Source: a virus
DNA: 64,000 bases
Virus record (IMG/VR): IMGVR_UViG_3300035034_001213
Location: 1 to 64,000 of that record
Direction: 5' to 3' (one strand)
The notes beneath the pieces are model-generated. The model was not told the origin of the DNA and searched no databases. It was given only the letters and a program-made list of their open reading frames with translations. Numbering within the stretch: position 1 is the stretch's first letter; each line of letters opens with the position of its first letter. A program made the position numbers and the translations under genes. This document shows positions 40,748-63,888 of this stretch, piece by piece.

Positions 40748-40786
40748 ACATAACACCTACTTAGAACGGATTGTTTAGAAATTTCG

Positions 40787-44970: not shown

Positions 44971-47328
44971 CTATTGACGATTGGTTAGCAAATCAAAGAG
45001 TTGATCAATTTGATTCTGCATCCCAGCCATCTCGACTTTCATCTCATCCAGTTCAGTGGATTTCTCATTGAAACCTTGAACCAATAGAGGTATGATGTCG
45101 GTATACGCCAGTGCTTTCTTATCATCTTCACGGTAACGCAGCAGCTCTGGAAAAACCTCCGCCGCCTCATGCGCCAGGAAACCAAAGCGTACCCGCCGCT
45201 CAGGGTCATCCTTGAAGATGTATTGCTTGGCCAACAGTCGGGTCAATTTCTCACTGACCGGACCAATCGACTCGATCGCTTCTTTTAACGACTCATCTGA
45301 CGAGTAGACAAAGTCCGCTGCCGTGATGATACCGGTAACCGTACTGTCTCCAGACTTCGTCACGTATTGAGAATCGTGATCGCCGCTCGTACGGTGGTCA
45401 TTCATCGCTTTGGCTTGCAAGATAGTCGTTGTCGCACTCGACGTACGTGACGCGGTGGTCGGTTGATTTACTTCAGCACCAGTCTCTATGCCGTTAAGTT
45501 TCGACTTGTCACCGATGCTTTGGAAACCAGCGTCAGTCGTACTGGCCACAGGAACCGTAGCCGCAACGCCAGTCGACGACGTTATTGTTCGGTTATTGCC
45601 TGAGCCCCCAACCGCCAGATCCGTATTCACGTTCACTTCAGCGCCAGCTTCAACGCCGTCCAACTTGGTTTTATCGGACGAAGACATCCAACCTGCCAAG
45701 GTAACCGTTGCACTACCGATGCTGGTATTGCTACCCGTCGACGACGTGATGGTCACTGATCCGGCAGCTCGATTCACCCCCAGATCAGTGCCAACGTTCA
45801 CTTGGGCACCAGCGGCGATTCCGTTAAGTTTCGACTTGTCGCCGATACTCATAAAACCAGCGTCTGTTGTCGTAACAACCGGTACTGCAACGTTACTGCC
45901 GGTGCTGGAGGCGAGCGTTAAGCTGTCGCCGGTTCCCGTCAACGAAAGGTTTGTGTCAACGTTGGGTTGCGCACCAGACTGAACGCTGTTTAACTTGGTT
46001 TTGTCCGCCGAAGTTAAAAGTCCAGCGGCAGCGGTTGTTGCCGAAGGGAGAACAACGTTCGTACCGTTGCTGTTGGTGATTGTAATGGTGCCTGAAGAGA
46101 CCGACTTGTCAAGGTTCGTTGAAACGTTGACTTGTGCTCCGACTTCAACCCCAATTAACTTATCGTAGTTAGCAATCGACATCAAACCCGCTGTGGTGCT
46201 GGACGACACAGGTAACGCGACATTCGACCCGGTGGAAGATACGATAGTCCTGGCGTTGCCACTGCCACCTAAGGACAAGTTTGTGTTGACGTTAACTTGT
46301 GCTCCGGCAGCGATGCCTGAGAGTTTGGTTTTCTCAGCCGCGGTGTAGTCCTCGCTGGACAGTCCTTTACCAGAAATCTTATCGACCTTGCCGTTCAAAG
46401 ACGCGTCGAGTTGGGTCTGCGTGTAATACCGTGCGTCGTGGTCGGCACTCTGGCGGTGGTTGTTCATCCCCGCTGCTTGAAGTACCGATGTGGTACTGGT
46501 ACTGGTTCGAGACGCCGTAGTGGTTGGGTTTACCTGTGCCCCAGCGGCAATGCCCGACAACTTGGTAAATTGAGCGGGGGACATCAACCCTGCGTCGACT
46601 GCATCTGCCAAGTCTAAGACAAACCCAGTACCGTTGCTGTTGGTGATAACGTACGAGGTGGCACTGCGAGTAACCGATAGATTACTATTAATGTTGCTTT
46701 CAGCACCTGGCTGGATGCTGTTTAGCTTAGTCAACAGGGCGTCGGTAAAGTCGTTCTCGGACAAGGCCTTGCCCGTTACCTTATCGACTTTGTCGTTCAA
46801 AGCGGTCCCCAACCCTGAGATTGAGGCGATCGACAGATTGTCTAGGTCTGCCCGGTTGAGCTTGATGTAATCGACAATTTCTTGCAACTCATTCAGCGTT
46901 GTATCGTCACTGTTGATGAGTGCGTTGATTTGATCGACCGCATCTTTAAGAACCTTGCCCTGGGCGGCAGACAGGGGTACGTCTGTGCTGGTGCTGGTGA
47001 GGTTGTCGACGATGGACGAAATATCGACCTTCAAAGCCAAGGCCGCGTCCGCCAGCGTCTTCGTGTAGTATCGAGCGTCGTGGTCGTCGCTGGCGACGTG
47101 ATCAAAAATACCCTTAGCCGTCAACAGACTGCCTTCGCTATTGATGGTTCTCAACGAAGTAATGGCGTTTGGCAATTCACCGAGGCCTACTTGGGCCTTA
47201 GTGACAGCGTGTGGATTCGACGTATCGGCGATGTGCGTGTCTGTTGAGACGAGGAGAGTATCGAGCTTCTCCTTCAATGCAGCAAAGACGGCATCGATCG
47301 ACGACTTAAGCTGAACGTTATCGGTCAT
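44971..47328 (-). CDS. Long tail fibre with C-terminal peptidase S74 intramolecular chaperone
   Basis: NPHAVTKAQVGLG, HDARYYT repeats, AGLMS..DKTKL.GI.AGAQVN repeats, SD..LK..I, GFLAHE..EVFPEL, coiled-coil end. Confidence 0.88.
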   Translation of the reverse strand: MTDNVQLKSSIDAVFAALKEKLDTLLVSTDTHIADTSNPHAVTKAQVGLGELPNAITSLRTINSEGSLLTAKGIFDHVASDDHDARYYTKTLADAALALKVDISSIVDNLTSTSTDVPLSAAQGKVLKDAVDQINALINSDDTTLNELQEIVDYIKLNRADLDNLSIASISGLGTALNDKVDKVTGKALSENDFTDALLTKLNSIQPGAESNINSNLSVTRSATSYVITNSNGTGFVLDLADAVDAGLMSPAQFTKLSGIAAGAQVNPTTTASRTSTSTTSVLQAAGMNNHRQSADHDARYYTQTQLDASLNGKVDKISGKGLSSEDYTAAEKTKLSGIAAGAQVNVNTNLSLGGSGNARTIVSSTGSNVALPVSSSTTAGLMSIANYDKLIGVEVGAQVNVSTNLDKSVSSGTITITNSNGTNVVLPSATTAAAGLLTSADKTKLNSVQSGAQPNVDTNLSLTGTGDSLTLASSTGSNVAVPVVTTTDAGFMSIGDKSKLNGIAAGAQVNVGTDLGVNRAAGSVTITSSTGSNTSIGSATVTLAGWMSSSDKTKLDGVEAGAEVNVNTDLAVGGSGNNRTITSSTGVAATVPVASTTDAGFQSIGDKSKLNGIETGAEVNQPTTASRTSSATTTILQAKAMNDHRTSGDHDSQYVTKSGDSTVTGIITAADFVYSSDESLKEAIESIGPVSEKLTRLLAKQYIFKDDPERRVRFGFLAHEAAEVFPELLRYREDDKKALAYTDIIPLLVQGFNEKSTELDEMKVEMAGMQNQIDQLFDLLTNRQ
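45480..46800 (-). repeat. Roughly 55-aa tandem repeats inside the tail fibre
   Basis: Recurrent AG(L/F/W)MS..DK.KL.GI.AGA.VN; near-identical DNA at 45491-45534 and 45821-45864. Confidence 0.75.
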
Positions 47329-48181: not shown

Positions 48182-49057
48182 CTAAGGGGTAAGTGTGGGT
48201 AATTGGGAAGGATTGATGTCGCTGTTCAGAGCAAAGTCAGACACTGCGTTCTCATCAATCGCTCTGGATAGATCCCACGTGCTGAGGTCGTCTGTCATAC
48301 CGGTACTGTTGGCAAAGAATGAGTTTGCATTAGCGATGTTGGTGGTCGTCCAATGCGCCAGCCGCAAGGGTTCAACCAATGACGTCCCACGGAACATATT
48401 CGAGGCATCGGAAGCGGTTCTGAAATGAGGCTCGTCTGTGGCCGTGACGCTGAAGTTTCTCTTGGCGTCGAACGCGTTGGCCCAATTGTCCATAATGAAC
48501 TCAGCACCCCACGCCTCGATATCCACCAACCAATCTCGGTCGTCTATCAAGCTGCCGCTGGAGTCGTAAGAGCCTTCGGCAGTGCCTGTGACTCGAACTC
48601 GGTAACTCCCAGGCTCCTCGTACGTGTGTGAGGGTTTGGCGCCATTAACGAAATCCTCCATGCTACCGTCGCCCCACTTGATCGTACCGGTGAAGTTAAT
48701 AAAGCTTAACTCCACAGTAGCGTTCTCAGCATCGACCTTATCGGTCTTCACCAGCCAGACCATTGGATTGCCCAAGATACCGGTCATCAAAATAGCGGCA
48801 ATCTCACTGCGTCTCAACTCGCCCATCAATTCTGGGTTTGAGAAGAACTCGTCGGTGAACATCGATGGGTTGTCCCGTTTAGCTTGAAGTACTACCCACG
48901 CAAAAGCATCGCCTTCGTTTTGCGCTAAGGATAGAGCCGAATCAAGATTCGCTCGAGTAATAAGACCGTCAGCAAAATCGAGAACGGCCTGCTTGTAGGC
49001 ATCGATCGCTGAGTTCATCTCGGTACATTTAACGTTTACATCTGCCAGCGTTGCCAT
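48182..49057 (-). CDS. PKD-like plus DUF285/BspA-like repeat protein
   Basis: IKWGDG...SHTYEEPGSYRVRVTG; DIEAWG, SNMFRG, LAHWTTTN, DLSTWDLSR. Confidence 0.65.
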   Translation of the reverse strand: MATLADVNVKCTEMNSAIDAYKQAVLDFADGLITRANLDSALSLAQNEGDAFAWVVLQAKRDNPSMFTDEFFSNPELMGELRRSEIAAILMTGILGNPMVWLVKTDKVDAENATVELSFINFTGTIKWGDGSMEDFVNGAKPSHTYEEPGSYRVRVTGTAEGSYDSSGSLIDDRDWLVDIEAWGAEFIMDNWANAFDAKRNFSVTATDEPHFRTASDASNMFRGTSLVEPLRLAHWTTTNIANANSFFANSTGMTDDLSTWDLSRAIDENAVSDFALNSDINPSQLPTLTP

Positions 49058-49095: not shown

Positions 49096-49130
49096 AATAA
49101 GAGGAGGCCCGAAGGCCTCCTCTATTTTTT
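49096..49130. terminator. Terminator after the desaturase array
   Basis: AGAGGAGGCC-CGAA-GGCCTCCTCT. Confidence 0.8.
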
Positions 49131-49934
49131 CGTCGCGGCTTTCAAAACATCGCTCAAATCGCAGGCGTCGTGGCCACGTCTAGGTTTCTTTATCAACCAA
49201 ATTACCCAAGCGGCTGGATCGATCTCCCACCATTTTATTTGCGTGTTCCAACGAGTTGGATACATGTGATGGTTGTTGTGCAGTCCATCGCCTAAAGTCA
49301 TTACGTGCATAAACCAACTGTTTCTACTTTCATCGGTTGTGTCGTAGTTACGGTACCCCCACTGATGTCCAGCAACATTGAACAGTCCTTTCAGATGAAA
49401 CATACACGCAGCCGGAATGCAGTATGCGTAAGCTGCGATCTTCCAATCAATCAAAGTCAGGACAAGGCTGAACATCAATAGAATAGGTACGTAGTATTTA
49501 TGCGTAAACTTGAAGAAGGGGTCTTTCAGTTCTTTCTTGATCAACCTGAGTTCAAGGTGCGGTACGTAATCGGTCCAGTCGCTGAACCACGACGTTAAAA
49601 CCCCTCGACCAACAGGACTGTGAGGGTCCTTCTCAGTGTCTGTGTGCTTATGATGCGATCGATGGACCAACGTGTTGGTCAACGGTGAGGCGATGGTGCA
49701 CAACATACCACAGAAGATTAGAAGATACCGAATAGGTGCGTAGGTCTCAAACGAGTTGTGGGCAAGCATGCGGTGGTAGCCTATCGTGACTCCTAAGAAT
49801 CCGTATGTTAAATAGGCGATCAACGAGACCTGAAGCCAAAACCACCAACCATTATACACTGCCGCAGAAATGAACGACAATGCTCCAATCTGCAACGCGA
49901 GCTGCAAGTACTTCAGTTGTCGAACTTCAGACAT
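49122..49934 (-). CDS. Membrane fatty-acid desaturase, copy 5
   Basis: HRMLAH, HRSHH, DPHSP, GDGLHNNHH, WWEIDP. Confidence 0.92.
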   Translation of the reverse strand: MSEVRQLKYLQLALQIGALSFISAAVYNGWWFWLQVSLIAYLTYGFLGVTIGYHRMLAHNSFETYAPIRYLLIFCGMLCTIASPLTNTLVHRSHHKHTDTEKDPHSPVGRGVLTSWFSDWTDYVPHLELRLIKKELKDPFFKFTHKYYVPILLMFSLVLTLIDWKIAAYAYCIPAACMFHLKGLFNVAGHQWGYRNYDTTDESRNSWFMHVMTLGDGLHNNHHMYPTRWNTQIKWWEIDPAAWVIWLIKKPRRGHDACDLSDVLKAATKK

Positions 49935-49946
49935 TAGTCTTCTCCA

Positions 49947-50705
49947 CTATGTCGGTTTTTTGATAAGCCAGATTATCCAAGCCGCTGGGTCTAGTTCCCA
50001 CCAGCGAATTTGAGTGTTCCAACGACCGGGGTATTTATGGTGGTTGTTGTGCCACCCGTCGCCGAACGACAATATGTGCATTGGCCAACAGTTGCGACTA
50101 TCCTCGTCAGTATCAAACGATCGATACCCCCAGGAGTGACCGAAGACGTTTGAAAACCCTTTGTAATGATAAAAGAACAAAGCCGGTACGCAGTACAAGT
50201 ACACAGCTACTTTCCAATCAACCAATGCCAGCATTACCACAAACAACAATAAGATTGTAGCGTAATGTTGATGCGTGAACTTAAAGAAGGGGTCTTTCAA
50301 CTCCTTTCTAGCGGTTCGAAGATCTAACTTCAAATCAATGCCCATCCAGTCTCCAAACCAAGTTCCTTTGTATCCCATTACGCTTGGACTGTGTGGGTCC
50401 CTAGCTCGGTCTGTGTGTTTGTGATGCGATCGGTGAACCAGTACGCCAGTCAACGGTGAGGATACCGAACACAGCATTCCACAGAAGATCAGCAGATACC
50501 GAATGGGAGCGTAGGTCTCAAACGAGTTGTGGGCAAGCATGCGGTGGTAGCCTATCGTCGTTCCAAGAACACCCACAACAAAATACACCAATAGTGCCCA
50601 ACCAAACCACGACCACATCTCTTGATAGATCCCATAAGGAATGGCCACAATCGCAATCGCGTGTGTGGCGATTTGAAAATATTTCAATTTGGTTGACGGT
50701 TGCAT
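49947..50705 (-). CDS. Membrane fatty-acid desaturase, copy 4
   Basis: HRMLAH, HRSHH, DPHSP, GDGWHNNHH; TAATG-coupled start. Confidence 0.92.
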   Translation of the reverse strand: MQPSTKLKYFQIATHAIAIVAIPYGIYQEMWSWFGWALLVYFVVGVLGTTIGYHRMLAHNSFETYAPIRYLLIFCGMLCSVSSPLTGVLVHRSHHKHTDRARDPHSPSVMGYKGTWFGDWMGIDLKLDLRTARKELKDPFFKFTHQHYATILLLFVVMLALVDWKVAVYLYCVPALFFYHYKGFSNVFGHSWGYRSFDTDEDSRNCWPMHILSFGDGWHNNHHKYPGRWNTQIRWWELDPAAWIIWLIKKPT

Positions 50706-51463
50706 TAGTACCTCGGTTTCTTTATCAAACGGATAACGACGGTTGGAATATCGACTTCCCACCAACGATCCCAGTTGTTCCAGTCGTTAGGGCGTGCATG
50801 ATGATTGTTGTGAAATCCTTCACCGCCTAATAACCAAGACACTAGCAACGAGTTGACTGACGCATCGTCCGTATCGTAGTTTCGATAGCCCGACGTATGG
50901 ATCCACGCGTTTGCAAAACCAAAGAGGATTCTTAGTAATGCAATCGGTAGTGCATACGCAAACAAAAACAAACGCCAATCGATGACTAACAGCAACGCTA
51001 CCCAACTGTAGATGATCTTAAAGTACTGGCGGTGAAAGAACAACATGTCTGGATCTCGAGTCAGATCCCGTATCGAACGAGGCGAACACTTCGACGTATC
51101 CATACCGATCGAGAACCAGGCTCTGAAGAACCCCATTGTCTTAGGACTGTGTGGATCTCCAGGTTTATCTGGGTACATGTGATGGGTTCTGTGTACCATG
51201 GCCCAAGTGACTGGTGAACCAAGACACATCAATGTACCACAGAACAGTAGAAACCACCGAACCGGAGTGTACGTAACAAAGCTGCGGTGCGATACGTATC
51301 GATGAAAGCCAACCGCGTTACCAAAGACGCTGAGAGTCAAGTAAACTCCCAACGTCCACCACAGCCAATGCCATTGCTGACTGTGGATTAGGTAAGTAAC
51401 CGCGACTATTCCAAAGACCGCATTGAACATCGTCAGTATGTTCGACTTGCGAGCTTCAGTCAT
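50705..51463 (-). CDS. Membrane fatty-acid desaturase, copy 3
   Basis: HRYVSH, HRTHH, DPHSP, GEGFHNNHH; AGGAG RBS. Confidence 0.92.
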   Translation of the reverse strand: MTEARKSNILTMFNAVFGIVAVTYLIHSQQWHWLWWTLGVYLTLSVFGNAVGFHRYVSHRSFVTYTPVRWFLLFCGTLMCLGSPVTWAMVHRTHHMYPDKPGDPHSPKTMGFFRAWFSIGMDTSKCSPRSIRDLTRDPDMLFFHRQYFKIIYSWVALLLVIDWRLFLFAYALPIALLRILFGFANAWIHTSGYRNYDTDDASVNSLLVSWLLGGEGFHNNHHARPNDWNNWDRWWEVDIPTVVIRLIKKPRY

Positions 51464-51473
51464 AGAGGTTCTC

Positions 51474-52271
51474 CTAGGCGGTTCTGTGTTTGGGCAAAGG
51501 ATGACCACGATGATGAATCAACTTAATGACCTGAGCCGGAATGTCCCATTCCCACCAACGTTCACGTGTATTCCACCGCGACGGATGCGCGTGATGATTG
51601 TTATGCCAACCTTCACCCATGGTCATGACGTTAGCGATCCAACTGTTCAAGCTGGTGTCGCCTTCCAACTGATGGTTACGATACCCATGAAGATGTGGGA
51701 TGACCACGATACCGCTGGCGCTGTGTAATGACAACACGGCCGGTAAAGCGTAGACGAAAGCTACCCCTTGCCAACCCAAGGTCAGGAACAGCAAGAGCGT
51801 CCAACCTGCCAACACATGGAAGTAGTAGTTATGCGTCCAGATGTATAAGGGATCCCGTCTCATCGTCTTCGAGACTCGACCAGCTTGTCGAAATCCTGAA
51901 GTATTCCAAGCACCGAACCATGCTTTCAATGGTCCTATGGCGTGTGGACTGTGCGGGTCGTGTTCACCATCCGTGTGAATGTGGTGGATGCGATGCACAA
52001 TGGACCAGGCCATCGGAGAACCCACGGTAGTGATGATGCCACAGAACATCAAAACGTATTCAACCGGTCGGTATGTCTTAAACGCCCCGTGCGCTAAGAA
52101 ACGATGAAACCCAACATTGATTCCTAGGATACCGATTACCCAATAGGTCAACCATGCGGTCAACAACCACATCCATTCACCCATGTAGATCGCCCAGCCC
52201 ACTGCAGGAATGGCAATTAGATGCGTGACTACTTGGAGCAGTCGTACACCGTTGTTGTGTGTCAATTTCAT
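51474..52271 (-). CDS. Membrane fatty-acid desaturase, copy 2
   Basis: HRFLAH, HRIHH, DPHSP, GEGWHNNHH. Confidence 0.92.
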   Translation of the reverse strand: MKLTHNNGVRLLQVVTHLIAIPAVGWAIYMGEWMWLLTAWLTYWVIGILGINVGFHRFLAHGAFKTYRPVEYVLMFCGIITTVGSPMAWSIVHRIHHIHTDGEHDPHSPHAIGPLKAWFGAWNTSGFRQAGRVSKTMRRDPLYIWTHNYYFHVLAGWTLLLFLTLGWQGVAFVYALPAVLSLHSASGIVVIPHLHGYRNHQLEGDTSLNSWIANVMTMGEGWHNNHHAHPSRWNTRERWWEWDIPAQVIKLIHHRGHPLPKHRTA

Positions 52272-52273
52272 TA

Positions 52274-53035
52274 CTACCCTCTCTTCTTGATAAGTCGAAT
52301 AAACATTGCGGTAGGATCAAGTTCCCACCATCTATGTTGAAGATTCCATTGACTGGGAAACGTGTGATGGTTGTTGTGCCACCCTTCGCCAACCGATAAG
52401 ATGTTGCAAAGCCAGCTGTTCTTTGAATGATCGTTATCTGGGTAGTTTTGATACCCCCAAGAATGACTCATAATCGATAGACAGAAGCCTACTACGAACG
52501 AATGCAGCGCCGCTGGAACGATGTACACGGCCAGAAGCCACTCAGGCCCTCCGAACAATAACAGTCCAAGACCATAAAGCGCATTCAATAAAAAATAATG
52601 CGTGTGAACCCAAAACATGATCGGATCACGAACCACGTCTCTGACGGAAACCCGCCGGTCTTGCATGTCGACGTATTTCAAACACAGAAGCGCTTTCCAG
52701 AAACCCATGTGACGATGACAATGTGGGTCCTTAGGCGTCTCGGTATAACGATGATGAACTCGATGCATCCAGGCCCAACTGATGGGAGTTCCCATCGCCA
52801 AAGGCACACTCATCAACGCCATGATCAATTCAATGGGTCGGTACGTCTTGTAGCTTCGATGCGAAACGTATCGATGCATGTACGCGTTGAACCCAATGCA
52901 TTGTTGAACACAATAGACACCGAGGGTTACCCAGAGCAACTCAGGGAAGGCCACCGCCAAGTAGATAACACTTGGAATAAACGCTAACCATAACCCGTTT
53001 CTAAAGACGTTCAATCGTTGTACGCTATACTCCAT
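52274..53035 (-). CDS. Membrane fatty-acid desaturase, copy 1
   Basis: HRYVSH, HRVHH, DPHC, GEGWHNNHH, WWELDP. Confidence 0.92.
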   Translation of the reverse strand: MEYSVQRLNVFRNGLWLAFIPSVIYLAVAFPELLWVTLGVYCVQQCIGFNAYMHRYVSHRSYKTYRPIELIMALMSVPLAMGTPISWAWMHRVHHRYTETPKDPHCHRHMGFWKALLCLKYVDMQDRRVSVRDVVRDPIMFWVHTHYFLLNALYGLGLLLFGGPEWLLAVYIVPAALHSFVVGFCLSIMSHSWGYQNYPDNDHSKNSWLCNILSVGEGWHNNHHTFPSQWNLQHRWWELDPTAMFIRLIKKRG

Positions 53036-54221
53036 ATCTGGTGACTCCTAAAACACTGTTCAATCCACCAAAGCCAAATGCGTTCTTGATAAACGAATTG
53101 ACTGGACCAGTAACTTGGTGTTTGGGAAGGTTAATCGGTTTTATGTCGGGGTCAGCTTCGAATTTACCGTTTGAGATGATAAACTCATACTTCATTTGAT
53201 ACAAGCTGTAGATCAACTCAATAATGCCAGACGCCGTGAGGGTGTGACCAATCAAACGTTTAAACGCAACGACTGGAATCTCATTGCCAATCACGTTTGA
53301 GATTGCTTCTGCTTCAACGACATCGCCATTAGGGGTTGAGGTCGCGTGTGCTGAGATGAAATCCGGACGGTGTCCCAACATAGCCATCTTACCTAAAACC
53401 TCAGACATGGACGCTGAGGCCCCCTCACCGGAAGGGTTCGTCATGTCTTCGCCGTCTGAATAATCAGCGTAGGCTATAGGCTGACCATACGCTTTAGTAC
53501 CACCACGTTGACGGAAGTATTCTTCCGATTCGAGAATAACACACCCGCCACCTTCACCATGTGTAAACCCACCACGATGTTTGACAAACGGCACACTGGC
53601 GTACGCTAGGTCGTCGCCTCGATAGAGTGCTCTCATGGCATCAAAGCCACGCATACCCTCATCGATGTATTTTTCAGTACTTACACAAATAACCACATCT
53701 GCACGACCAAGTTCGATCAGATCCATACCTTGGGTCACCGCGCGTAGTCCTGTAGCACACGCGTGTTGCACTGTGTGCGTTGGGCCTTTCAACTTAAGAA
53801 CGGTAGAGAGAGGTCCAGTTACAACCGTCGGAAGAGTCTTCATGAGATCAAACGGTTTGACCCGTGGGAAGTCCTTCTGAACAATACTACGCATGGAAGG
53901 CATGTCGCCAGCACCGCTGCCTGAGCACAAGGCTACTCGTCGAGTATTTATGTCGTCTAAACACAACCCCGCGTCCGCTAATGCGTCTAGTACTACTGCG
54001 TAGGAGATGTTTAAATGATCCATTTGATAACTACGAGGAATCCCGGGCGCCAGTAACCGTGAGTCGTCAATGCATTTGGAAACACTGCTCGCCTTGTTCC
54101 TGGGATCGTTACTTTCGTACCGTTGGATCGAAACTGTCTCTTGTTTCAGATTGCCAACAATTTCTCCCTCCCAACGTCCAATTGAGGTAATACACCCCAC
54201 ACCCGTTATTACACAACTCAT
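53025..54221 (-). CDS. Beta-ketoacyl-ACP synthase (FabF/FabB type)
   Basis: VITGVG, catalytic HACATG, GEGGG, HATST, KRLIGHT and NAFGFGG; Cys-His-His triad intact. Confidence 0.92.
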   Translation of the reverse strand: MSCVITGVGCITSIGRWEGEIVGNLKQETVSIQRYESNDPRNKASSVSKCIDDSRLLAPGIPRSYQMDHLNISYAVVLDALADAGLCLDDINTRRVALCSGSGAGDMPSMRSIVQKDFPRVKPFDLMKTLPTVVTGPLSTVLKLKGPTHTVQHACATGLRAVTQGMDLIELGRADVVICVSTEKYIDEGMRGFDAMRALYRGDDLAYASVPFVKHRGGFTHGEGGGCVILESEEYFRQRGGTKAYGQPIAYADYSDGEDMTNPSGEGASASMSEVLGKMAMLGHRPDFISAHATSTPNGDVVEAEAISNVIGNEIPVVAFKRLIGHTLTASGIIELIYSLYQMKYEFIISNGKFEADPDIKPINLPKHQVTGPVNSFIKNAFGFGGLNSVLGVTRYGV

Positions 54222-54278: not shown

Positions 54279-54806
54279 CTAGATGTACTCGATCTCGATA
54301 GCCCCGACCTGCGCGCCATTGGACCCAGCATTGATCGTAACCGGTGTACCGCTTAGGGTAATGATTTCAACACCCACAACCGGCTGGCCATCGATATCGA
54401 TATCACCCTCGGCTACAGAGAGAAATCCCAATATCGACAGAGTCGTAGATTCGTTGGGACCGAGGATTAGGCGATGCGGTGCCAGCTGTCGATGGTTGGT
54501 GTTAAACGTATCTAGACAATACCCAACGGTTCCGTCTTCCTGAATGGTCATTCGACTCCAATGTGCATTGTGGGTTGTTTGGAAAGGGGTCGATGAGGTG
54601 ATCAAGTCTTCTCTGAACGTGTTTGTCTTTAAAATACTACCAGAGACTATGAACCGACAGTCGTTCGTGGGGACGTAGTCATCAGCTTCCACTTCTACGT
54701 GAGTCGGCTGTTCACCGAAAATAATAGATTCCCCAGTGTCGCCAATAAAGAAAGCAACCGCCACATCACCATCTGGCAGTTTTAAACGATTTAGACGCGT
54801 TCTCAT
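54279..54806 (-). CDS. Hypothetical beta-rich (possibly cupin-like) protein
   Basis: LSVAEGDIDIDG; beta-strand pattern; within the cluster. Confidence 0.5.
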   Translation of the reverse strand: MRTRLNRLKLPDGDVAVAFFIGDTGESIIFGEQPTHVEVEADDYVPTNDCRFIVSGSILKTNTFREDLITSSTPFQTTHNAHWSRMTIQEDGTVGYCLDTFNTNHRQLAPHRLILGPNESTTLSILGFLSVAEGDIDIDGQPVVGVEIITLSGTPVTINAGSNGAQVGAIEIEYI

Positions 54807-54816
54807 TATAACCCCT

Positions 54817-55371
54817 TCATTCTTTTAAATAAACATCAATAGGTATCGCAAGTCTAAGTCCAGGCTCGTGATTCTCAACGCTGTGCTGTAAGTACGATGG
54901 AAAGATAACCAGACCGCCGTGTTCGGTTTTGTATTTGTACGGCTGAAAGTGATTGTTGATCACATCCGTTGGGTATCCTCGAGACGCCAGTCCTCTTGGG
55001 TCAAACAAAGTTAAATACCCTTCCCTTGCCTCCAAGTAATAAATTGCAGAAACGTGGGCACCGCTGTGGTGGTGGATTGGTGTCCCGCACCCGTCGCTGC
55101 TGTTTCTTACCCAGCCAGTCCAGCTGTCTAGTAAAGGTTCGTAATTAAACTGATCCCAGGCGTACTGCATGATCTTGGGGATCAAGGTCTCCTCTACAAA
55201 CTCTTTCAGGTTCGGGTACTGTCTTAGATGCAAACTTCTGGTGTCGTCGATTGGAAGTCCGTCGGTACTCCTCGGTTGCATCATCGCTTCGTAAATCAAC
55301 GTTTCGTGCTGTTTAGAGACGACCGAATCTTCACGTATCGCGACAGTCCATGGATGAACGTCAATTGTCAT
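54817..55371 (-). CDS. Putative 2OG-Fe(II) oxygenase (TIGR02466-like)
   Basis: HHHSGAHVSAIYY, LFDPRG, FPSYLQHSV, RLAI. Confidence 0.82.
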   Translation of the reverse strand: MTIDVHPWTVAIREDSVVSKQHETLIYEAMMQPRSTDGLPIDDTRSLHLRQYPNLKEFVEETLIPKIMQYAWDQFNYEPLLDSWTGWVRNSSDGCGTPIHHHSGAHVSAIYYLEAREGYLTLFDPRGLASRGYPTDVINNHFQPYKYKTEHGGLVIFPSYLQHSVENHEPGLRLAIPIDVYLKE

Positions 55372-55380: not shown

Positions 55381-55947
55381 TTACTTAGGTTTACTCAAGT
55401 ACAAATCGACTGGAATAGAAATTCTCATCTTTTTATCATGTCCGTCAACGTAGTGTTGAAGATACGACGGGAATACAAGAAGCAATCCTTCTTTTGGATC
55501 TTCGCTGAACAAATTAAAAAATTCATTCCGAACCACCGTCGGGTATCCTCGGCACGCAGACCCTCGGGGGTCGACCAGATTGAGTGCGCCGCCATTGGTA
55601 GTTAATGGATAGTAGATCGCTGACAGAACGGCCCCACTGTGTTCGTGAAGTTTCATACCTTCGCCACCGGTCGTTACTCGGACCCAAGCGTTGTATGTGT
55701 ACTCCACGGCTTCTAATTCCCAGTGCTCGTAAAGATACGACAGCAGCGCTGGGAGAACTCGATCTTCAAGCATCCGATGGATCTGTGGAAACGTCTTTAA
55801 TGAAACGGTGTTGTCATCCAGATCCAGATCGTCGAAGTTTCGGTTTGTAGACCGTATCAGCGCTTCGGTTATCAATTCGTCGTTGTCTACGTTTTCGAGT
55901 ATCTCCCGACGGACCACTGTCCGCCATGGTTCTATATCTTGAAACAT
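55381..55947 (-). CDS. Putative 2OG-Fe(II) oxygenase (TIGR02466-like)
   Basis: HEHSGAVLSAIYY, LVDPRG, FPSYLQHYV, RISI; GGAGG RBS. Confidence 0.82.
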   Translation of the reverse strand: MFQDIEPWRTVVRREILENVDNDELITEALIRSTNRNFDDLDLDDNTVSLKTFPQIHRMLEDRVLPALLSYLYEHWELEAVEYTYNAWVRVTTGGEGMKLHEHSGAVLSAIYYPLTTNGGALNLVDPRGSACRGYPTVVRNEFFNLFSEDPKEGLLLVFPSYLQHYVDGHDKKMRISIPVDLYLSKPK

Positions 55948-56357
55948 GCGGCCTCCGCCATACACTCGTCTTTGAAATATTGGACCGTGAAATCCACCCA
56001 CCGACCTTTTAGGGGAATGTTCTCAATGCCCCCTAAGGCCTCCAATATGATGTCGTACGATTCCTTGTCTTGGGTGTAGGGTACAAAGTATTCATCAGTT
56101 CCGTATAAAAGCATGGGGTCGTTTAAGACCTCATAGAACGGTTCGTTGAAGTGTTCCCAAAGTAACCGAGAATAAATCAAAGCAACCGCGTATGACTTTC
56201 CTGGATAAACCGATTCTTCCCGAGGGTCTAACAAATACTCCAAAGCCGGACCTACGACGTCTTCTCGATCAATGATCGTCTCAAAGTTTTCGACAGCGTC
56301 GGTGTGGACTTGGGTCATAAGGTGATATAGCTTCTGATTGGCTTTCCATTCTTTCAT
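55932..56357 (-). CDS. Hypothetical protein of the radical SAM cluster
   Basis: ATGA-coupled to the upstream radical SAM gene. Confidence 0.6.
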   Translation of the reverse strand: MKEWKANQKLYHLMTQVHTDAVENFETIIDREDVVGPALEYLLDPREESVYPGKSYAVALIYSRLLWEHFNEPFYEVLNDPMLLYGTDEYFVPYTQDKESYDIILEALGGIENIPLKGRWVDFTVQYFKDECMAEAACFKI

Positions 56358-57442
56358 GAAGCACGCCGCTCCCAGTTAAACTCTTCACGCATCTCCCTTG
56401 CGGTTGAAATACAGTGTTCGGAGTCGGTAATGGTCATCACTTTCTGGACTCCCCGCTCAGCGCACTTGGCAATGAACTCACACCCGTCACAGATGCCGTT
56501 GGTTTGCGCCAACGACAGACACTCGATCATACCGTCCTCTTCTTGACGAAAGATGTTCTCGAAGGTCCAGGGACCGTCCACTCGATGCTCCGGTTCAAAG
56601 GAGGAGAAGGCTTCCACAATGAACGGAGGCACAAACATCTCACCGTTGCGGTACACCACGTCCCAGTCTTCCCCTTCGTTCATCTGCAACTCAACGATTT
56701 CGAAATGTTCCTGACGCTCGTTCGCAGCCATCCGTGACTGGATAAGCAACCGGTTTAGGTGTTCAAGACTGGACAGGAAATTTTCTTGATTGACGGGATC
56801 TCTGAGGCTCTCTCGACCGTGAGGAAGAATGAAATCGCTGTGCGACGTCGGATGGAGATTGACGTGGTACGCTCGAGTAAGGATGTCCTTAGTCAGAGTG
56901 AAGCCGCGTTTATGATCGTTGGCGATCGACTCCTCAAAGTTAACGACGCTGTAGACTCGAGTGATCTTAACGGTACTTAAGCAGCTTTCGAAATACGCCA
57001 CCCTGTTACGAATGCCTTCGATGTACGCTGGGTTGTCAATGTGACGCACCTCAAACGGCACCGTAAACTTCAGAAGACCGTTAGGAATCAACGCTTCGAC
57101 TTGTTCCGCCAACTTTTCATAGACCTCAGGTTTCGGATCTAGGAACGCACAGTTCAAGGTGGTCTTGAGAAACCGCTGAGCAATCTGCTTGATCCTCGGG
57201 TGTTCCAAGATCAAGTTTTTGTTCTCGGAGCTGAGGATGTCTGTGGGACCCAAGATAAAGTTGAGGACCTCCAACTCAGCGGTTTCAAAGGTATCGATCA
57301 TTCGATCAATGCGATCAAACTCTTCAAGGGTTGGGAATCGATTGTCTTCTTTCTCAACCATACATCCCGAACAATTGTGTCGACAGCCACTTGCGATTTC
57401 CATAGTGAAGTCGATTAACTTATTAACTTGTGACTTGTGCAT
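56354..57442 (-). CDS. Atypical radical SAM-like protein with C-terminal Cys cluster
   Basis: CRHNCSGC (CxxxCxxC); C-terminal CDGCEFIAKC...HC; no GGE motif. Confidence 0.68.
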   Translation of the reverse strand: MHKSQVNKLIDFTMEIASGCRHNCSGCMVEKEDNRFPTLEEFDRIDRMIDTFETAELEVLNFILGPTDILSSENKNLILEHPRIKQIAQRFLKTTLNCAFLDPKPEVYEKLAEQVEALIPNGLLKFTVPFEVRHIDNPAYIEGIRNRVAYFESCLSTVKITRVYSVVNFEESIANDHKRGFTLTKDILTRAYHVNLHPTSHSDFILPHGRESLRDPVNQENFLSSLEHLNRLLIQSRMAANERQEHFEIVELQMNEGEDWDVVYRNGEMFVPPFIVEAFSSFEPEHRVDGPWTFENIFRQEEDGMIECLSLAQTNGICDGCEFIAKCAERGVQKVMTITDSEHCISTAREMREEFNWERRAS

Positions 57443-57446
57443 AATT

Positions 57447-58502
57447 TCACCAACTGCATTTATAGCTGAGTTTACCGAGCACCGACAAACACTCATGCGT
57501 TCCTAATAACCTCTGTACTCGATGTACCCCTCGAGTTGCGCACTTGCTGACAAACCGACACCGAGAACATTCGTTAGATTCACCAGCACGGGTGATGGAT
57601 TCGAAAAAGGTCTCTTGATCGGCCTGTTGGATCTTGTCAAGTGTCCAGGGTTTCTTGAATTTGAAGTCGTCGTGAAAAATGGTGATCGGACTGTTAATAA
57701 GGGGGGCTATATACAGGTCGCCATTGCGATACGCCAGATGATAATCGCACCCAACGTGCTCACCCAGATCGTCGATCTTAAACTCGTACCCTTTGTCCAC
57801 CTGATTGGCAAACATTTCGTTTTGCTTCAAGATGGTTCTTAAGAACTCTTCTCGGTCTTCGTTAACCGACAGGTCACGGCGGCCGTAATGAAACACAAAC
57901 GTGGTGGTGTCTGACTTTTCAAACAACTCGATGTGTCGGGTCTTATGGAGCGTCTCTTCACTGACAACGCCTTTGTCCATCAGCGACTCGGTCATATTCA
58001 CGATCGCGGTAACACTCCCGATCCCCACCGACTTCAGATTTTCATTCAACCAGTTGATGCGACCCCGGAGCTTTTCAACGTACCCCAAGTTGTCGTGATG
58101 CTTTAATTCGAAGGGTACCAGAAACTCCGCGTTCAACCCTGGCATAAACGCCTCGAGCTCTTCAGCAAACTGAACGTACGCGTCCGGATCGGGGTTCAAG
58201 AAGGAGCAGTTGAACACCACCGACTTAAACCCTTTTAACATCTTTCGAACCGCAGGGTGAGTTAATACGTCTTGTCGATTGCTGGCGGACATGATGTCTA
58301 CCGGTGCAAACTCCATCCAAGACATCTCCCATCCACGACTGCGTACGTCGTCAATAATCTCACTGAGCGCTGCGAGATCGGCTTCTGTGTATGGGGTAAT
58401 GTCTTTGGTGTTAACGCTGCACCCAGAACACCCGTAGTCACAGTCTTTTAACAACTCCAGCGCTAGATTGCCGATGTTGTCCCCTCGAACCATGGTTGTC
58501 AT
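57447..58502 (-). CDS. Atypical radical SAM-like protein with C-terminal Cys cluster
   Basis: CDYGCSGC; C-terminal CSRCRFVSKC...EC; apparent paralog of its neighbour. Confidence 0.68.
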   Translation of the reverse strand: MTTMVRGDNIGNLALELLKDCDYGCSGCSVNTKDITPYTEADLAALSEIIDDVRSRGWEMSWMEFAPVDIMSASNRQDVLTHPAVRKMLKGFKSVVFNCSFLNPDPDAYVQFAEELEAFMPGLNAEFLVPFELKHHDNLGYVEKLRGRINWLNENLKSVGIGSVTAIVNMTESLMDKGVVSEETLHKTRHIELFEKSDTTTFVFHYGRRDLSVNEDREEFLRTILKQNEMFANQVDKGYEFKIDDLGEHVGCDYHLAYRNGDLYIAPLINSPITIFHDDFKFKKPWTLDKIQQADQETFFESITRAGESNECSRCRFVSKCATRGVHRVQRLLGTHECLSVLGKLSYKCSW

Positions 58503-59443
58503 TGCGATTCAGCCCATTTTAACAAATGTAGAAACCCGTTGCACGAGTGCGTCGTATCGGTGACTTTACGAAGATGTTCAGACAAACACTTACCGGCGTA
58601 GTCACATTCCGAACACTTGGAATCAAGTACCTTGAGCTTCTCTCCTGCACACCAACCAAAGTATTCCTCGATACTGTCCAACTCCAAAAAGTATTCGTTG
58701 TCTTGTTCATCAAAGTCCAAGACGCCGAACTTCCCAGTTGGGGTGATGTAGACGTGGTCGTCGGAGAACGAATGTCCCCGACCTTCCAAACAATCTTGTA
58801 TGTTCAACGCGTTCACAAAATCAAACTTCATCTTATCTTGGCGCTTGTACAACACCTTGATAAACGCCTCGTAGTCGTGATAACTCACCGGCAGTTGATT
58901 GGCTTGATTAGGACTGTACGGCTTGATCTCTACCGACGTGAGATTTGACAACAGGTTTAACGTGTTGATGATCTCATCTGGGTCTTTCGCCATTACTTCG
59001 GGAGTAGCCAACATCAAAATCGAAAAGTCGCGTTCCATTTTTAACATCTGCTGAAAGACGTGGTCGTGCTTTTCTCGAGCCTCAAAGTCGTAGCTCACTG
59101 AGATGCCCCAGCTCACGTCGTGGACCGCAGGATTGTTCATGGATAGATTGGTGATGATGTTAAGATCGTCAATCCCACGATCGTGTAACCCGTCCTTCAG
59201 TGCGCCGATGTATTCCGGTGGCAACAACAAAGGTTCGCCACCGTACAGATCCACCATCTCTACCTTCCGGTGAATCATTACCTCATCGATCCGATCAAAC
59301 AACCGATGCAACGTCAAGCGCTTCTTGTCGCCGAGTTGTTCTGACGTGAGATAACAAAACCCACATCGGAAATTACAGAAGTACGAAGGATTAATGCTAA
59401 GATTAATCGGAATCTCAGGTAACGTCAAAGAGTTTGAGTTCAT
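58499..59443 (-). CDS. Radical SAM/SPASM-type protein
   Basis: CNFRCGFC, LYGGEP, ITNL, C-terminal CSECDYAGKC...SC. Confidence 0.88.
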   Translation of the reverse strand: MNSNSLTLPEIPINLSINPSYFCNFRCGFCYLTSEQLGDKKRLTLHRLFDRIDEVMIHRKVEMVDLYGGEPLLLPPEYIGALKDGLHDRGIDDLNIITNLSMNNPAVHDVSWGISVSYDFEAREKHDHVFQQMLKMERDFSILMLATPEVMAKDPDEIINTLNLLSNLTSVEIKPYSPNQANQLPVSYHDYEAFIKVLYKRQDKMKFDFVNALNIQDCLEGRGHSFSDDHVYITPTGKFGVLDFDEQDNEYFLELDSIEEYFGWCAGEKLKVLDSKCSECDYAGKCLSEHLRKVTDTTHSCNGFLHLLKWAESQ

Positions 59444-60512
59444 CGTTACTCTCATCTACGTAGGGGGTGGGAATCAATTGCCCAGTCAATCCATTGGCCT
59501 CGATGATCTCTGGGGCAAGAGCTTTCATCTTACGACAGTGCTCTTCAACACGACCTGTCTTTTTAGCGTCGCGTATGCTCTTCTTACACCCATTGCATAT
59601 AGAGAACATTGGACAGAAGAAACAGTCTTTCTTCAGACTTTGCAGTTCATAGACTTGAAGCGGCAGTTTCATCTCCCCTTCCATCTCCTCGTTAAAGTCG
59701 ATGGGGTATTCTCGATCGTCCCCAAACGACCCACAAGAATAATAGCCACCATTGGGTTGCATGGTGCGAATACCAGAGTCGCAGTTACGAGACAAAGGAC
59801 AAGCGTCAGAACCTTTGGCTAAAACTTGAAGCATCTGCTTAGTGCTGTACTCCCAGGGTGCCAGACCTTCCCGCCACACCGCCAAATACGCTTTGTACAT
59901 ATCGGCGACTAAGAAATGTTGATCTTCACTGCCCATGGTGCCTTTACGGGTTTGTATTACCGGACCCGAAGCGTTGGTGTAGTTGATCTTACATTCCACA
60001 TCCATCGCTTTGGCTAAACGTACTGTCTTCACCACATCGTCGACGTTCGTTTCATCGATTACTGAGATGAACGATGGGCGATACCCCACCAGCTCCAACA
60101 TGAGGTCTGAGACGGCCCAGAACTCCTCTTCGGTGAAAGGGGTATAATCACCCTTCAAACGCTTGTTACCGTACTGGAAGCTCGTAGCAACGCCCACACG
60201 AGGGTGTTTGAACAACTCCAGCCACATCTGAGGTTTCTTGTAGAACGGCCAGAGGTTGGTCGTCAGTGAAATGGACGTGTGGGGCATATCCAACTCATCC
60301 AGAATCTCAATCATTTCCCAGTAGTACGACACGGGCATCATAAGGGGATCGCCGCCGTTGATGATGATCGTATCGGTTTGTGGGAATCGTTGAAGAAACC
60401 GTTTGATGTCCGGAAGCTCAACGATGTCGTTGCTGTCCTCAGCGATGTCGGTGCTTGAGCAGAAGGTGCACTTAAAGTTACACTTCTCAGTTGGCTTAAT
60501 TATCAAATCGAT
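59415..60512 (-). CDS. Radical SAM/SPASM-type protein
   Basis: IIKPTEKCNFKCTFC, NGGDP, TTNL, CPLSRNC, YSCG, CFFC..FSICNGC; start probably ATC at 60512. Confidence 0.9.
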   Translation of the reverse strand: MDLIIKPTEKCNFKCTFCSSTDIAEDSNDIVELPDIKRFLQRFPQTDTIIINGGDPLMMPVSYYWEMIEILDELDMPHTSISLTTNLWPFYKKPQMWLELFKHPRVGVATSFQYGNKRLKGDYTPFTEEEFWAVSDLMLELVGYRPSFISVIDETNVDDVVKTVRLAKAMDVECKINYTNASGPVIQTRKGTMGSEDQHFLVADMYKAYLAVWREGLAPWEYSTKQMLQVLAKGSDACPLSRNCDSGIRTMQPNGGYYSCGSFGDDREYPIDFNEEMEGEMKLPLQVYELQSLKKDCFFCPMFSICNGCKKSIRDAKKTGRVEEHCRKMKALAPEIIEANGLTGQLIPTPYVDESNDELKLFDVT

Positions 60513-60543
60513 TTTACTACCCTCCTAGCCGTTAAGGGCTCGT

Positions 60544-61602
60544 TTAAACATTCATGGCAGGAATGCGTTTATCCGGTCCTTCGACGACCGAGTCAATGTA
60601 CCGATGCGTGACTTTGTAGACACACTCATCCATCTCTTCCCGGAACCGGTAATTGTGTTGCATGAAACAACCCAACTCACAACGCTGGAAATACTCACAG
60701 GTCAAGCACCCATATTTCTCCATGAAGTGCTCTTCAATCGCCGAGTTGTCGGTTTTGTCCAACGGCACCTCGTAAATCTCTTCCGCCACCTTGGGATCGA
60801 TCAGATTACCGCAGCCGCACGTGGTCCCGTCTTCTAAGACCAGTTTACTCGACCGACACGACAGTGCCGAAGGCTGACGTCTTAACCACCCGGCGACCGG
60901 CTCACAGTTCGGGTAGTGGTCAATCAAAAACTTGAACATGCGTAACAAGTCATGATCGCTTGGGGCTGCGTTGGTTTTCTCATCCGGCATGAGGTAATCG
61001 AAGTACAACTTAAACCCTTGATCGTACGCCCAACTAAAGAACTCGTCTTGGTCTTTGACGAAGTGTTCGATGTTTTGCTTGGTCATCAAAAGACTGACGC
61101 TTCGAACCACGCGCGGTCCATAGTAAGCCAGGTTCTTCTTGAAGATCTCTAACTGCGCTCGATTGAATCTTCCTTTTGGATCGTAGGACACCGTCACTGT
61201 GGTGCTTCCGCCCAAGGTTCTTGCTCTTTCTAAGAAGTCGTCCAGTAGCGGGCGGTCCTCCGTGACCAGATTTGTCACCCAGTTCAACGTCACCGCTATG
61301 TTCTTCGCCCGACATTGATCGATAATCGCTTCACTGAACCGAACGTAGGTGTCGGCCAATTCGGGGGTAAAGACCTCTGGTGCAAAGACCTCACCCCCCA
61401 TAATGTTAAACACCACTTTGCGTTTGGTTTCTTTTTGCAGAAGCGCTTCAACAGAAGAGAGCTTGCCCATGACATCATCGACCCCCACTAAGGAGTCGTG
61501 ATCCTGCCAACAGAAACTGCATGACAGGTTACAGTAGGTGAACAGATGTAACGTGTACTCCTGCTCTTCATCGCGCTTGTTCTGTAAAAAGACGTCCATC
61601 AT
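60544..61602 (-). CDS. Radical SAM/SPASM-type protein
   Basis: CNLSCSFC, MGGEV, VTNL, C-terminal CLTCEYFQRCELGC...EC. Confidence 0.9.
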   Translation of the reverse strand: MMDVFLQNKRDEEQEYTLHLFTYCNLSCSFCWQDHDSLVGVDDVMGKLSSVEALLQKETKRKVVFNIMGGEVFAPEVFTPELADTYVRFSEAIIDQCRAKNIAVTLNWVTNLVTEDRPLLDDFLERARTLGGSTTVTVSYDPKGRFNRAQLEIFKKNLAYYGPRVVRSVSLLMTKQNIEHFVKDQDEFFSWAYDQGFKLYFDYLMPDEKTNAAPSDHDLLRMFKFLIDHYPNCEPVAGWLRRQPSALSCRSSKLVLEDGTTCGCGNLIDPKVAEEIYEVPLDKTDNSAIEEHFMEKYGCLTCEYFQRCELGCFMQHNYRFREEMDECVYKVTHRYIDSVVEGPDKRIPAMNV

Positions 61603-63337: not shown

Positions 63338-63888
63338 TATCGCCGACCTCTTGAGTTATGGCACCGAGAGTGACATCGAGTGTGACAGACATCTCGAGTT
63401 AATAACGTAGCCCCTCCCCGAGCGAATGCTAAATAGTTGTTTCTTAGAGACTCGATGAAGTCATACGTATCCGATTGATCAACGTCGTTTCCGGCGATAA
63501 CGGTGGTTATATCCGGAAATCCAGTGTCGGCAGCGTATTGAGGGGCCAAATGAGCCACCGCTGTGACGTTGTAAATCAATCTTTTGCTGTTGTTGTAATA
63601 CCCAGATCGGGTTCGATAAATAGTGATCTGCGTGTTACGAACATTGAAATACCCTTGTGCAACCCCGATCAAACTGCTCCTACATCTCAATGCGTCCAAT
63701 TCCCCATCGGTGCCTCGTATTGAAGCATATGAAGGCATCGTGTAATCGCCACCAGTGCTTCCACCAAACCATCCCAGAAGGGAACCGGAAGGGTAATTGT
63801 TGGTGCCCCACGAAATACCACTTCTTTGCAGCTCTCTTACCCGGGTTAGAAACCGGTTGTAGACGTCGTATACCCTAATGTCAGCCAT
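63337..63888 (-). CDS. Putative radical SAM substrate protein with C-terminal CHxx repeat
   Basis: Ends VCHTRCHSRCHNSRGRR; first gene of the radical SAM run; AGGA RBS. Confidence 0.65.
   Translation of the reverse strand: MADIRVYDVYNRFLTRVRELQRSGISWGTNNYPSGSLLGWFGGSTGGDYTMPSYASIRGTDGELDALRCRSSLIGVAQGYFNVRNTQITIYRTRSGYYNNSKRLIYNVTAVAHLAPQYAADTGFPDITTVIAGNDVDQSDTYDFIESLRNNYLAFARGGATLLTRDVCHTRCHSRCHNSRGRR

Follow-up and report, generated by a model that had tools for sequence, protein, structure and literature searches.

What would a jumbo phage do with a ketosynthase and six different fatty acid desaturases? The question is raised by a window of 64,000 nucleotides (nt), bases 1-64000 of a linear IMG/VR virus record that runs to 73,033 bases (IMGVR_UViG_3300035034_001213; CheckV completeness 27%), in which a gene for a FabB/FabF-type beta-ketoacyl-acyl carrier protein (ACP) synthase, hereafter the ketosynthase, is followed directly by five tandem desaturase genes (Des1 to Des5), a sixth (Des6) standing apart. 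Phage desaturases are usually filed as single membrane-loosening helpers; here they are old, different from one another, fixed in order and joined to a ketosynthase. This is a real, conserved feature, and it extends the known viral desaturase helper genes by a ketosynthase joined to an ordered paralogue array. We hold with middling confidence that the locus would be a conserved accessory lipid module that re-tailors host acyl chains by means of host ACP, fatty-acid synthesis and electron donors, raising and diversifying their unsaturation.

The initial annotation, made from the letters of the window, had reported the ketosynthase with an intact catalytic triad and coupled to Des1, the five tandem desaturases (all within 49122-54221), the sixth at 41090, three intact histidine (His) boxes in each of the six, and a phiKZ-like phage context. 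All of this held up, the genes lying on the minus strand (Table 1). The six desaturases pass the Pfam cut-off of 29.7 for PF00487 (45.6-70.0 bits), both ketoacyl-synthase domains pass theirs of 20.8 (PF00109, 90.3 bits; PF02801, 69 bits), and a major capsid protein of PhiKZ type is recognised at 619 bits (PF25620). Searched in all six frames, the full record gave exactly six PF00487 matches, and only four of 14 control genomes so searched had any. The boxes HRxxxH, H(R/N)xHH and H(N/A)NHH are present in all six proteins, the third being H-type and not Q-type throughout. Twenty-five columns are invariant across the six, including the eight box histidines and H105, H144 and H191, and the eight metal-binding histidines are invariant in both this alignment and one of 40 sequences. 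The structures of stearoyl-CoA desaturase SCD1 (4ZYO, 4YMK) and bacterial DesA/DesC share the boxes HRxxxH, HRxHH and HNxHH with the phage desaturases, which are 50-100 residues shorter than their cellular relatives. The only solved sequences matched by a profile of 40 short viral desaturases (A3) were SCD1: 4ZYO with E 8.4e-38 over 237 of 250 profile positions, and 4YMK with 2.1e-37. The Atlas predicted model of Des1 is confident (predicted template modelling score, pTM, 0.89). In a simple hydropathy scan, hydrophobic stretches precede box 1 and lie between boxes 2 and 3 in all six, the four helices not being resolved per protein at this level. The best NCBIfam model is the DesA family NF049918, at 38.4-89.5 bits far under its cut-off of 400. 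By motifs and profile matches, the six desaturases are of the SCD1/DesC (delta-9) type and outside any curated equivalog, and they fall mostly within a viral family of short desaturases.

The ketosynthase is similarly complete and similarly distant from named enzymes. Residues C155, H292, K321 and H326 are invariant in a 16-sequence alignment of its clade (A2) and align with the motifs of the solved FabB 7pps, and the C-terminal GFGG motif is retained. FabB 7pps is the best solved match (E 7.6e-50), with FabF entries at about 1e-42; the protein scores 236.8 against a cut-off of 493.75 for the fabF equivalog TIGR03150 and 208.5 against 630 for the FabB model NF005935. Judged by these scores it resembles FabB and FabF about equally and is outside any curated equivalog. 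It is 31-34% identical to the cellular enzymes, with which it has the domains, Cys-His-His, Lys and GFGG in common; unlike them it belongs to a separate small clade of 16 sequences, without an adjacent ACP or other fatty-acid synthesis genes. Fifteen metagenome relatives are 43-72% identical to it. Beyond this clade full-length matches reach at most 34%, and a few partial ones 39-40% over about two-thirds of the query.

The genes are tightly packed. Between the ketosynthase stop and the Des1 start there is an 11-nt overlap, and the two genes are predicted to be translationally coupled. With the starts of Des3 and Des4 revised, the gaps from the ketosynthase to Des5 are -11, 2, 10, -1 and 12 nt. 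For both genes the ATG entered in Table 1 is most likely the true start, that of Des3 being preceded by AGGAGA as a candidate ribosome site and that of Des4 overlapping the Des3 stop as TAATG. A perfect palindromic hairpin overlaps the Des5 stop codon and probably marks the end of the transcription unit. Near-identical palindromes stand at 12532-12555 and 39314-39337 (three matches, against none in shuffled sequences), and all three copies lie at gene-cluster borders; the element is probably a phage terminator or RNA-end element, the terminator role being putative. Since sigma-70-like sites were no commoner than in shuffled sequences (19 against a mean of 20.9), no promoter is proposed.

How old is the array? 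The same arrangement of ketosynthase and desaturases was found in two further viral contigs, G001 (222,493 bases, terminal repeats, 100% complete) and G002 (170,557 bases). The three phages share the order radical S-adenosylmethionine (radical-SAM) array, two 2-oxoglutarate (2OG) oxygenases, ketosynthase, tandem desaturases, tail fibre. G001 has three tandem and two detached desaturases; G002 has four tandem and one more, five being found by a family-specific hidden Markov model and four by Pfam. We placed the desaturases in a tree of 70 rows (62 viral, eight as cellular outgroup; quick IQ-TREE search with a mixture model), supported by the Shimodaira-Hasegawa-like approximate likelihood ratio test (SH-aLRT). 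Each window desaturase groups with one G001 and one G002 gene, with gene order kept, Des4 and Des5 going jointly with the single gene d4. The orthologue clades have SH-aLRT supports of 100 (Des1 and Des2) and 99 (Des3; Des4 and Des5 with d4; Des6, whose orthologues are G001_d5 and G002_d5). Orthologues in the three phages are 59-79% identical at the protein level, the highest value belonging to Des2 and its G002 orthologue; the window paralogues are 23-37% identical to Des1, and Des4 is 60% identical to Des5. Several lineages find their closest kin in the arrays of viral contigs that are not related to these phages; thus L045_d4 and L073_d3 join Des6 (support 99), and L095_d6 and L091_d3 join Des1 (support 84). 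On this tree the six desaturases are five old, separately conserved paralogue lineages and not recent copies, with only Des4 and Des5 forming a lineage-specific duplication. That the lineages are orthologous and ordered argues against recent dosage duplication and for separately kept functions.

Table 1. Positions of the lipid genes and adjoining features in the window (aa, amino acids; ORF, open reading frame)
Feature	Position	Strand	Remarks
FabB/FabF-type beta-ketoacyl-ACP synthase, 398 aa	53025-54221	-	PF00109 + PF02801; triad Cys155-His292-His326 plus Lys321
Des1, 253 aa	52274-53035	-	PF00487 63.1 bits; three His boxes
Des2, 265 aa	51474-52271	-	PF00487 56.7 bits
Des3, 252 aa from ATG 51463 (ORF open to 51508)	50705-51463	-	PF00487 59.8 bits
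Des4, 252 aa from ATG 50705 (ORF open to 50765)	49947-50705	-	PF00487 63.8 bits
Des5, 270 aa, duplicate partner of Des4	49122-49934	-	PF00487 70.0 bits
Des6, 254 aa, detached, third His box HANHH	41090-41854	-	PF00487 45.6 bits
Perfect palindromic GC-rich 24-nt hairpin AGAGGAGGnCCGAAGGnCTCCTCT	49100-49123		Overlaps Des5 stop codon
175-aa protein, membership in module putative	54279-54806	-	Just upstream of ketosynthase
Two PF13759-type 2OG-Fe(II) oxygenase paralogues, module membership uncertain	54817-55371, 55381-56001	-	Pfam
Radical-SAM cassette	Window 55932-64000 to record base 65466 (L007:3935-5466)	-	Upstream of lipid genes
PKD/DUF285 protein	48182-49057	-	Follows desaturase array
Tail fibre	44971-47328	-	Between five-desaturase array and Des6
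Endolysin	39944-40756	-	Same minus-strand run as lipid genes

Single viral desaturase genes are well known (PMC5776448, PMC7678222), among them the DesC-like genes of cyanophages described by Roitman et al. 2017 (PMC5776448). Also close to the window are two Arctic cryopeg/sea-ice viruses with 'five copies each' of a desaturase (Zhong et al. 2020, PMC7300359); such multi-copy genes have been read in print as serving membrane fluidity, and elevated dosage is discussed by the authors. These viral fatty-acid desaturase (vFAD) auxiliary genes and those of the window are both of delta-9/SCD1 type, with three His boxes, a position between phage genes and several divergent copies, as reported there. 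In keeping with a place between phage genes, capsid, helicase, tail-fibre and endolysin genes were found on the same record as the window desaturases. The window array differs from what is described for vFAD in being joined to a ketosynthase, in lying in a phiKZ-like jumbo phage and in having copies that are ordered orthologous lineages. The words ketoacyl, ketosynthase, acyl carrier and jumbo have no occurrence in the main text of PMC7300359, a count that applies to the main text and leaves the supplementary gene maps outside. Zaragoza-Solas et al. 2020 mention in one line fabF and stearoyl-CoA desaturase genes in freshwater pelagimyophages of group PMP-D (PMC7029224). There, as in the window, a phage FabF-type ketosynthase and a delta-9-type desaturase occur together, and both cases are from fresh water; unlike the window, PMP-D has single genes in T4-like phages, and that mention describes no array or coupling and offers no analysis. 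Desaturase, ketoacyl and fatty acid have no occurrence in the main texts of two jumbo-phage surveys (PMC13573597, PMC12625630). We found no description in print, the supplement of PMC7300359 not being covered, of a ketosynthase-coupled desaturase array, of ordered orthologous paralogue lineages, or of such a module in phiKZ-like phages.

Which parts of a lipid pathway does the phage itself supply? No ACP, acyl-AMP ligase or thioesterase had been noticed in the window by the initial annotation, which proposed looking beyond it for ACP or acyltransferase genes. A six-frame search for ACP (PF00550) at E<=0.1 found none in the window record, G001 or G002. The absence of the other partners extends to the complete relative: among 254 G001 ORFs of at least 60 aa, compared with Pfam at E<=1e-4 (ORFs crossing eleven 20-kb cuts being left out), there was no AMP-binding ligase, thioesterase, acyltransferase or FabD/G/Z/I, nor any ferredoxin, rubredoxin, flavodoxin or cytochrome b5 family. 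Likewise, no AMP-binding family, thioesterase or rubredoxin/ferritin partner occurs among the scanned ORFs of the window record (window 1-35180 and 35248-64000, record bases 63935-72967). The lack of ACP, ligase, thioesterase and redox partner in a complete relative means that host parts would be needed.

In the reading that we favour, that of an accessory module acting through host parts, the desaturases would be short (about 250 aa), four-helix, di-iron, oxygen-dependent enzymes of the SCD1/DesC type, inserted in the host inner membrane and supplied with electrons by host ferredoxin, flavodoxin or rubredoxin. The ketosynthase would act on host acyl-ACP and malonyl-ACP, and host FabG, FabZ and FabI would complete each elongation cycle. 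Because the phage lacks ACP, reductases, dehydratase, ligase, thioesterase and an electron donor, its ketosynthase would have to use host acyl-ACP and malonyl-ACP, and its desaturases host reductants. What would most likely set the five lineages apart is where the double bond is placed, the length of the chain or the lipid used as substrate, and more than one double bond per chain may be introduced. The presumed benefit would be a membrane kept working in cold water once host regulation is off. Stepwise desaturation is familiar from cyanobacteria, where DesC, DesA, DesB and DesD act in turn on the same chains with oxygen and ferredoxin (PMC5776448). Several membrane desaturases set membrane unsaturation in that scheme; in the window all six are of delta-9 type. 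DesC, DesA, DesB and DesD belong to different desaturase subfamilies and are not known to have a linked ketosynthase.

The initial annotation had also proposed that a host chain bound to ACP or lipid is desaturated sequentially and had likened the array to bacterial polyyne/acetylenase clusters. Its further suggestions of virion acylation and of a tie to the early membrane vesicle drew no support from any of the tests made. The idea of sequential desaturation stands in so far as old, non-redundant copies fit distinct or sequential steps and host parts would be needed; the likeness to those clusters does not. Bacterial polyynes are made on ACP by a desaturase triad (Kim et al. 2022, PMC9828172). 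As described there, the cay/pgn/JamABC cassettes cannot do without three parts, namely acyl-AMP ligase, dedicated ACP and thioesterase; a rubredoxin/ferritin partner is a conserved core gene that raises yield and is outside the minimal set; the cay/pgn desaturases carry HXXHH/QXXHH boxes, CayE/PgnH being like delta-12 desaturases. Those cassettes and the window alike have at least three side-by-side desaturases (five tandem and one more in the window), and in the cassettes several of them act on one acyl chain. Unlike the cassettes, the window has no such ligase, dedicated ACP, thioesterase or redox partner. Because the complete 222-kb relative is also without all four, the module is, judged by its gene content, not a polyyne-type cluster, and with H-type third boxes and only delta-9-type enzymes in the window the proposed likeness fails.

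The array is part of a wider viral pattern. Desaturases of this short kind occur widely in IMG/VR; of 610 stretches found by pattern matching, at least 565 are relatives. Among 77 viral loci kept (not dereplicated), 39 carry one desaturase and 38 at least two; the largest arrays have 11 (L095) and seven (L091). Only one of the best 80 cellular loci, which are at most 38% identical to the query desaturase, has two desaturases, and two have a ketosynthase within 6 kb. In the Atlas clusters nearest Des1, 60-74% of the members of known taxa are viral. Desaturase arrays are a viral trait. A search for related loci with the single ketosynthase sequence returned none and required alignment A2 as query. 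Among 80 metagenome loci fetched by likeness to the ketosynthase, 23 have a ketosynthase directly followed by one to five desaturases. Desaturase-linked ketosynthases form two clades, that of the window with 10 rows and a second with 22 desaturase-linked rows and one other, in a FastTree tree, which gives weaker support. At seven of 13 junctions, the seven including members of both clades, the desaturase ATG lies within the last ketosynthase codons (R-Y-x-x-stop), with overlaps of 8-17 nt.

Some of these loci carry parts that the window lacks. The richest array seen, on viral contig L095 (L095:3782-19625), comprises 11 desaturase genes, among which lie those for a ketosynthase and an 80-aa ACP; the contig also encodes an AcpS-type transferase, rubrerythrin, a Rieske protein and an ATP-grasp enzyme. 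On L052 (L052:8442-18381; L093 is similar) two tandem desaturases are followed by an SDR gene and a radical-SAM gene, with a ketosynthase, an ACP-like protein, a FabA/FabZ dehydratase and AcpS on the opposite strand; together these genes form a small set for fatty-acid synthesis, nearly complete and located on a phage contig. L084 has an array with ACP. On the metagenome contig L177 (L177:4478-10527; also L173) the ketosynthase is joined by five tandem desaturases, after which comes a FabI-like enoyl-ACP reductase with a strong match (PF13561, 260 bits). Overall, ACP genes are present in eight of 50 desaturase-bearing viral records, mostly fragments; two records reach 90% completeness or more, and one of these has an ACP gene.

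Several considerations weigh against the favoured account of a module that re-tailors host chains. Five to 11 different desaturases exceed the known need of membrane fluidity, and the ACP, AcpS, ketosynthase and dehydratase genes in the arrays of other phages (L095, L052, L084) point to carrier-bound, not phospholipid-bound, chemistry. Because the ketosynthase cannot act on lipid-bound chains and yet is tightly coupled to Des1, at least one desaturase would handle acyl-ACP or a direct product. Known sequential membrane pathways use different desaturase subfamilies, whereas all six here are of delta-9 type. The supporting numbers are weakened by the fact that the viral loci were not dereplicated, and the desaturase tree by its quick search with only eight cellular outgroup rows. 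The product, mono-unsaturated, polyunsaturated or acetylenic, is beyond reading from sequence, and any activity of this viral family is putative.

The alternative that survives best is a dedicated carrier-bound pathway, in which one ACP-held chain (on host ACP here) would be desaturated stepwise by the paralogues and extended at least once by the ketosynthase, by analogy with the aerobic elongase-desaturase route to polyunsaturated fatty acids or with the polyene/polyyne route. Its product would be a special lipid, for example with an early vesicle, virion, signalling or toxin role. We consider this reading rather unlikely. It is kept alive by the coupling of ketosynthase and Des1, by the number and age of the paralogues and by the ACP-bearing arrays elsewhere. 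The old, non-redundant copies in fixed order, the recurrence of the ketosynthase-desaturase junction in two ketosynthase clades, the contents of L095 and L052, the FabI-like reductase of L177 and the eight ACP-bearing records all speak for it, as does the synthesis of bacterial polyynes on ACP by a desaturase triad (PMC9828172). Against it, the window lineage is without ACP, ligase, thioesterase and redox partner even in a complete genome, no release enzyme is present, and 42 of the 50 desaturase-bearing viral records, most of them fragments, have no ACP; moreover, the six H-type third boxes and the SCD1 fold family differ from the HXXHH/QXXHH boxes and delta-12 likeness described for cay/pgn (PMC9828172). 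In its general form the idea would make the cassette an old, mainly viral, aerobic elongate-and-desaturate pathway on ACP-bound chains (host ACP here, phage ACP elsewhere), giving polyunsaturated, conjugated or acetylenic chains as a special infection lipid, a proposal that we put forward tentatively and regard as doubtful. If it were true, arrays of 5-11 desaturases would be assembly lines for chains otherwise made in bacteria only by Pfa-type synthases or polyyne clusters.

Less probable, and in our view distinctly unlikely, is a different chemistry, in which some paralogues would act as hydroxylases or epoxygenases, or would desaturate another membrane substrate, such as the acyl chains of lipid A or isoprenoid/alkyl lipids, and the outcome would be a change of the cell surface, for instance a block to superinfection. 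Membrane di-iron superfamily enzymes switch between desaturation, hydroxylation and acetylenation with few changes, which counts in favour of this possibility, as do the deep divergence among the paralogues and the interleaving of the lipid genes with tail-fibre and endolysin genes. Arguing the other way, all six have every delta-9-type motif and match only SCD1 among solved structures, and the linked ketosynthase suggests ordinary acyl chains.

The adjoining radical-SAM and 2OG-oxygenase cassette (55.9-65.5 kb) invites the thought of a joint pathway, in which an acyl group built by the ketosynthase and desaturases would be attached to, or modified along with, a small Cys-His-rich peptide of the cassette. 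The cassette has four clear radical-SAM/SPASM-type genes, two phrog_31457 genes with weak radical-SAM matches, a cupin-like gene and unknowns; a 183-aa protein (63337-63888) ends CHTRCHSRCHNSRGRR, and weak NCBIfam matches to HxsB and HxsC give the cassette a resemblance to His-Xaa-Ser-type maturase systems. In each of the three related phages the lipid genes and the cassette lie side by side in one orientation, with little space between genes, and PF13759-type relatives stand beside desaturases in eight further viral loci. Nevertheless, we regard a joint pathway as very unlikely. We rejected the cassette as a travelling companion of desaturase arrays: among 100 desaturase-bearing loci its proteins were matched only in four loci derived from G001 or G002, plus one paralogue match in L069, and because of this restriction we treat it as a separate module. 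Second-clade ketosynthase-desaturase cassettes have none of its proteins, and the G001 ORF scan gave no acyltransferase or ligase. Simple gene dosage, with all copies giving the same delta-9 monoene and merely more enzyme, seems to us hardly credible, for although His-box type and fold family are the same in all six, Des4 and Des5 are a lineage-specific pair and elevated dosage is discussed in PMC7300359, even that pair is just 60% identical, the copies are just 23-37% identical to Des1, each has its own orthologues in two phages whose capsids (75% for G001) are far more alike than the paralogues are among themselves, and the paralogue lineages are common to unrelated arrays.

Expressing the genes and reading the fatty acids formed would be a cheap way to discriminate between fluidity tuning and a multi-step phage lipid pathway. 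The matter reaches beyond one phage: large phages unrelated to it have this cassette too, in some cases along with a carrier protein of their own. A multi-step pathway, if true, would mean that unusual unsaturated lipids have a further, new origin in lakes and oceans and would provide a new set of compact (about 250 aa) desaturases, possibly differing in position specificity. It would also raise the question of whether nucleus-forming phages shape the membranes needed early in infection.

The window comes from an uncultured phiKZ-like jumbo phage of lake water and covers a part of its genome. Cultured jumbo phages of Erwinia, Xanthomonas and Pseudomonas have capsid proteins about 33% identical to that of the window, and the record also carries genes for virion proteins, a tail fibre, an endolysin and a divergent DnaB helicase (Pfam/PHROG). 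No chimallin or tubulin was found among the scanned ORFs of the fragment, which is 27% complete. Chimallin and a PhuZ-like tubulin are both present in G001, together with many virion families known from phiKZ, and because the G001 capsid protein is 75% identical to that of the window, the window phage is, on this homology, very probably a nucleus-forming jumbo phage. When the 5.1-kb stretch was compared with 50,697 phage records by megablast, none matched, and tblastn of Des5 against the same records found only three, at 27-30% identity. The sequencing runs listed for the sequence are DNA, labelled lake water and salt lake metagenomes, the best of which may be its source; no RNA run is listed. 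A tRNA scan found none.

All genes from about 65.5 kb down to 39.9 kb lie on the minus strand. Immediately upstream of the ketosynthase, the 175-aa protein has no Pfam, PHROG or NCBIfam match and is 42% identical to an ORF at the same place in G002; we rejected it as a conserved partner of the module, phmmer matches being confined to loci derived from G001 and G002. Also rejected was a protein of about 205 aa that follows second-clade ketosynthase-Des-Des cassettes, considered as a 2OG oxygenase like those of the window (hhalign probability 5.4%). Second-clade ketosynthases are themselves preceded by conserved unknown ORFs of about 115 and 170 aa (L137, L151, L159, L177). In L091 (6201-11020), L084 (13050-18625) and L045 (7706-12426), desaturase arrays stand beside genes for B12-binding radical-SAM, cupin, Rieske, AspH-like hydroxylase and ATP-grasp proteins; these surroundings may be one oxidative tailoring island or merely a shared hot spot for accessory genes. 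Elsewhere in the window (19132-35180) there is a run of about 25 small plus-strand ORFs, whose sole Pfam family is a MarR-like protein at 23062-23421; a similar MarR-like gene is present in G001. DUF285 proteins, one of which follows the desaturase array, have at least eight paralogues in G001, scattered over its genome.

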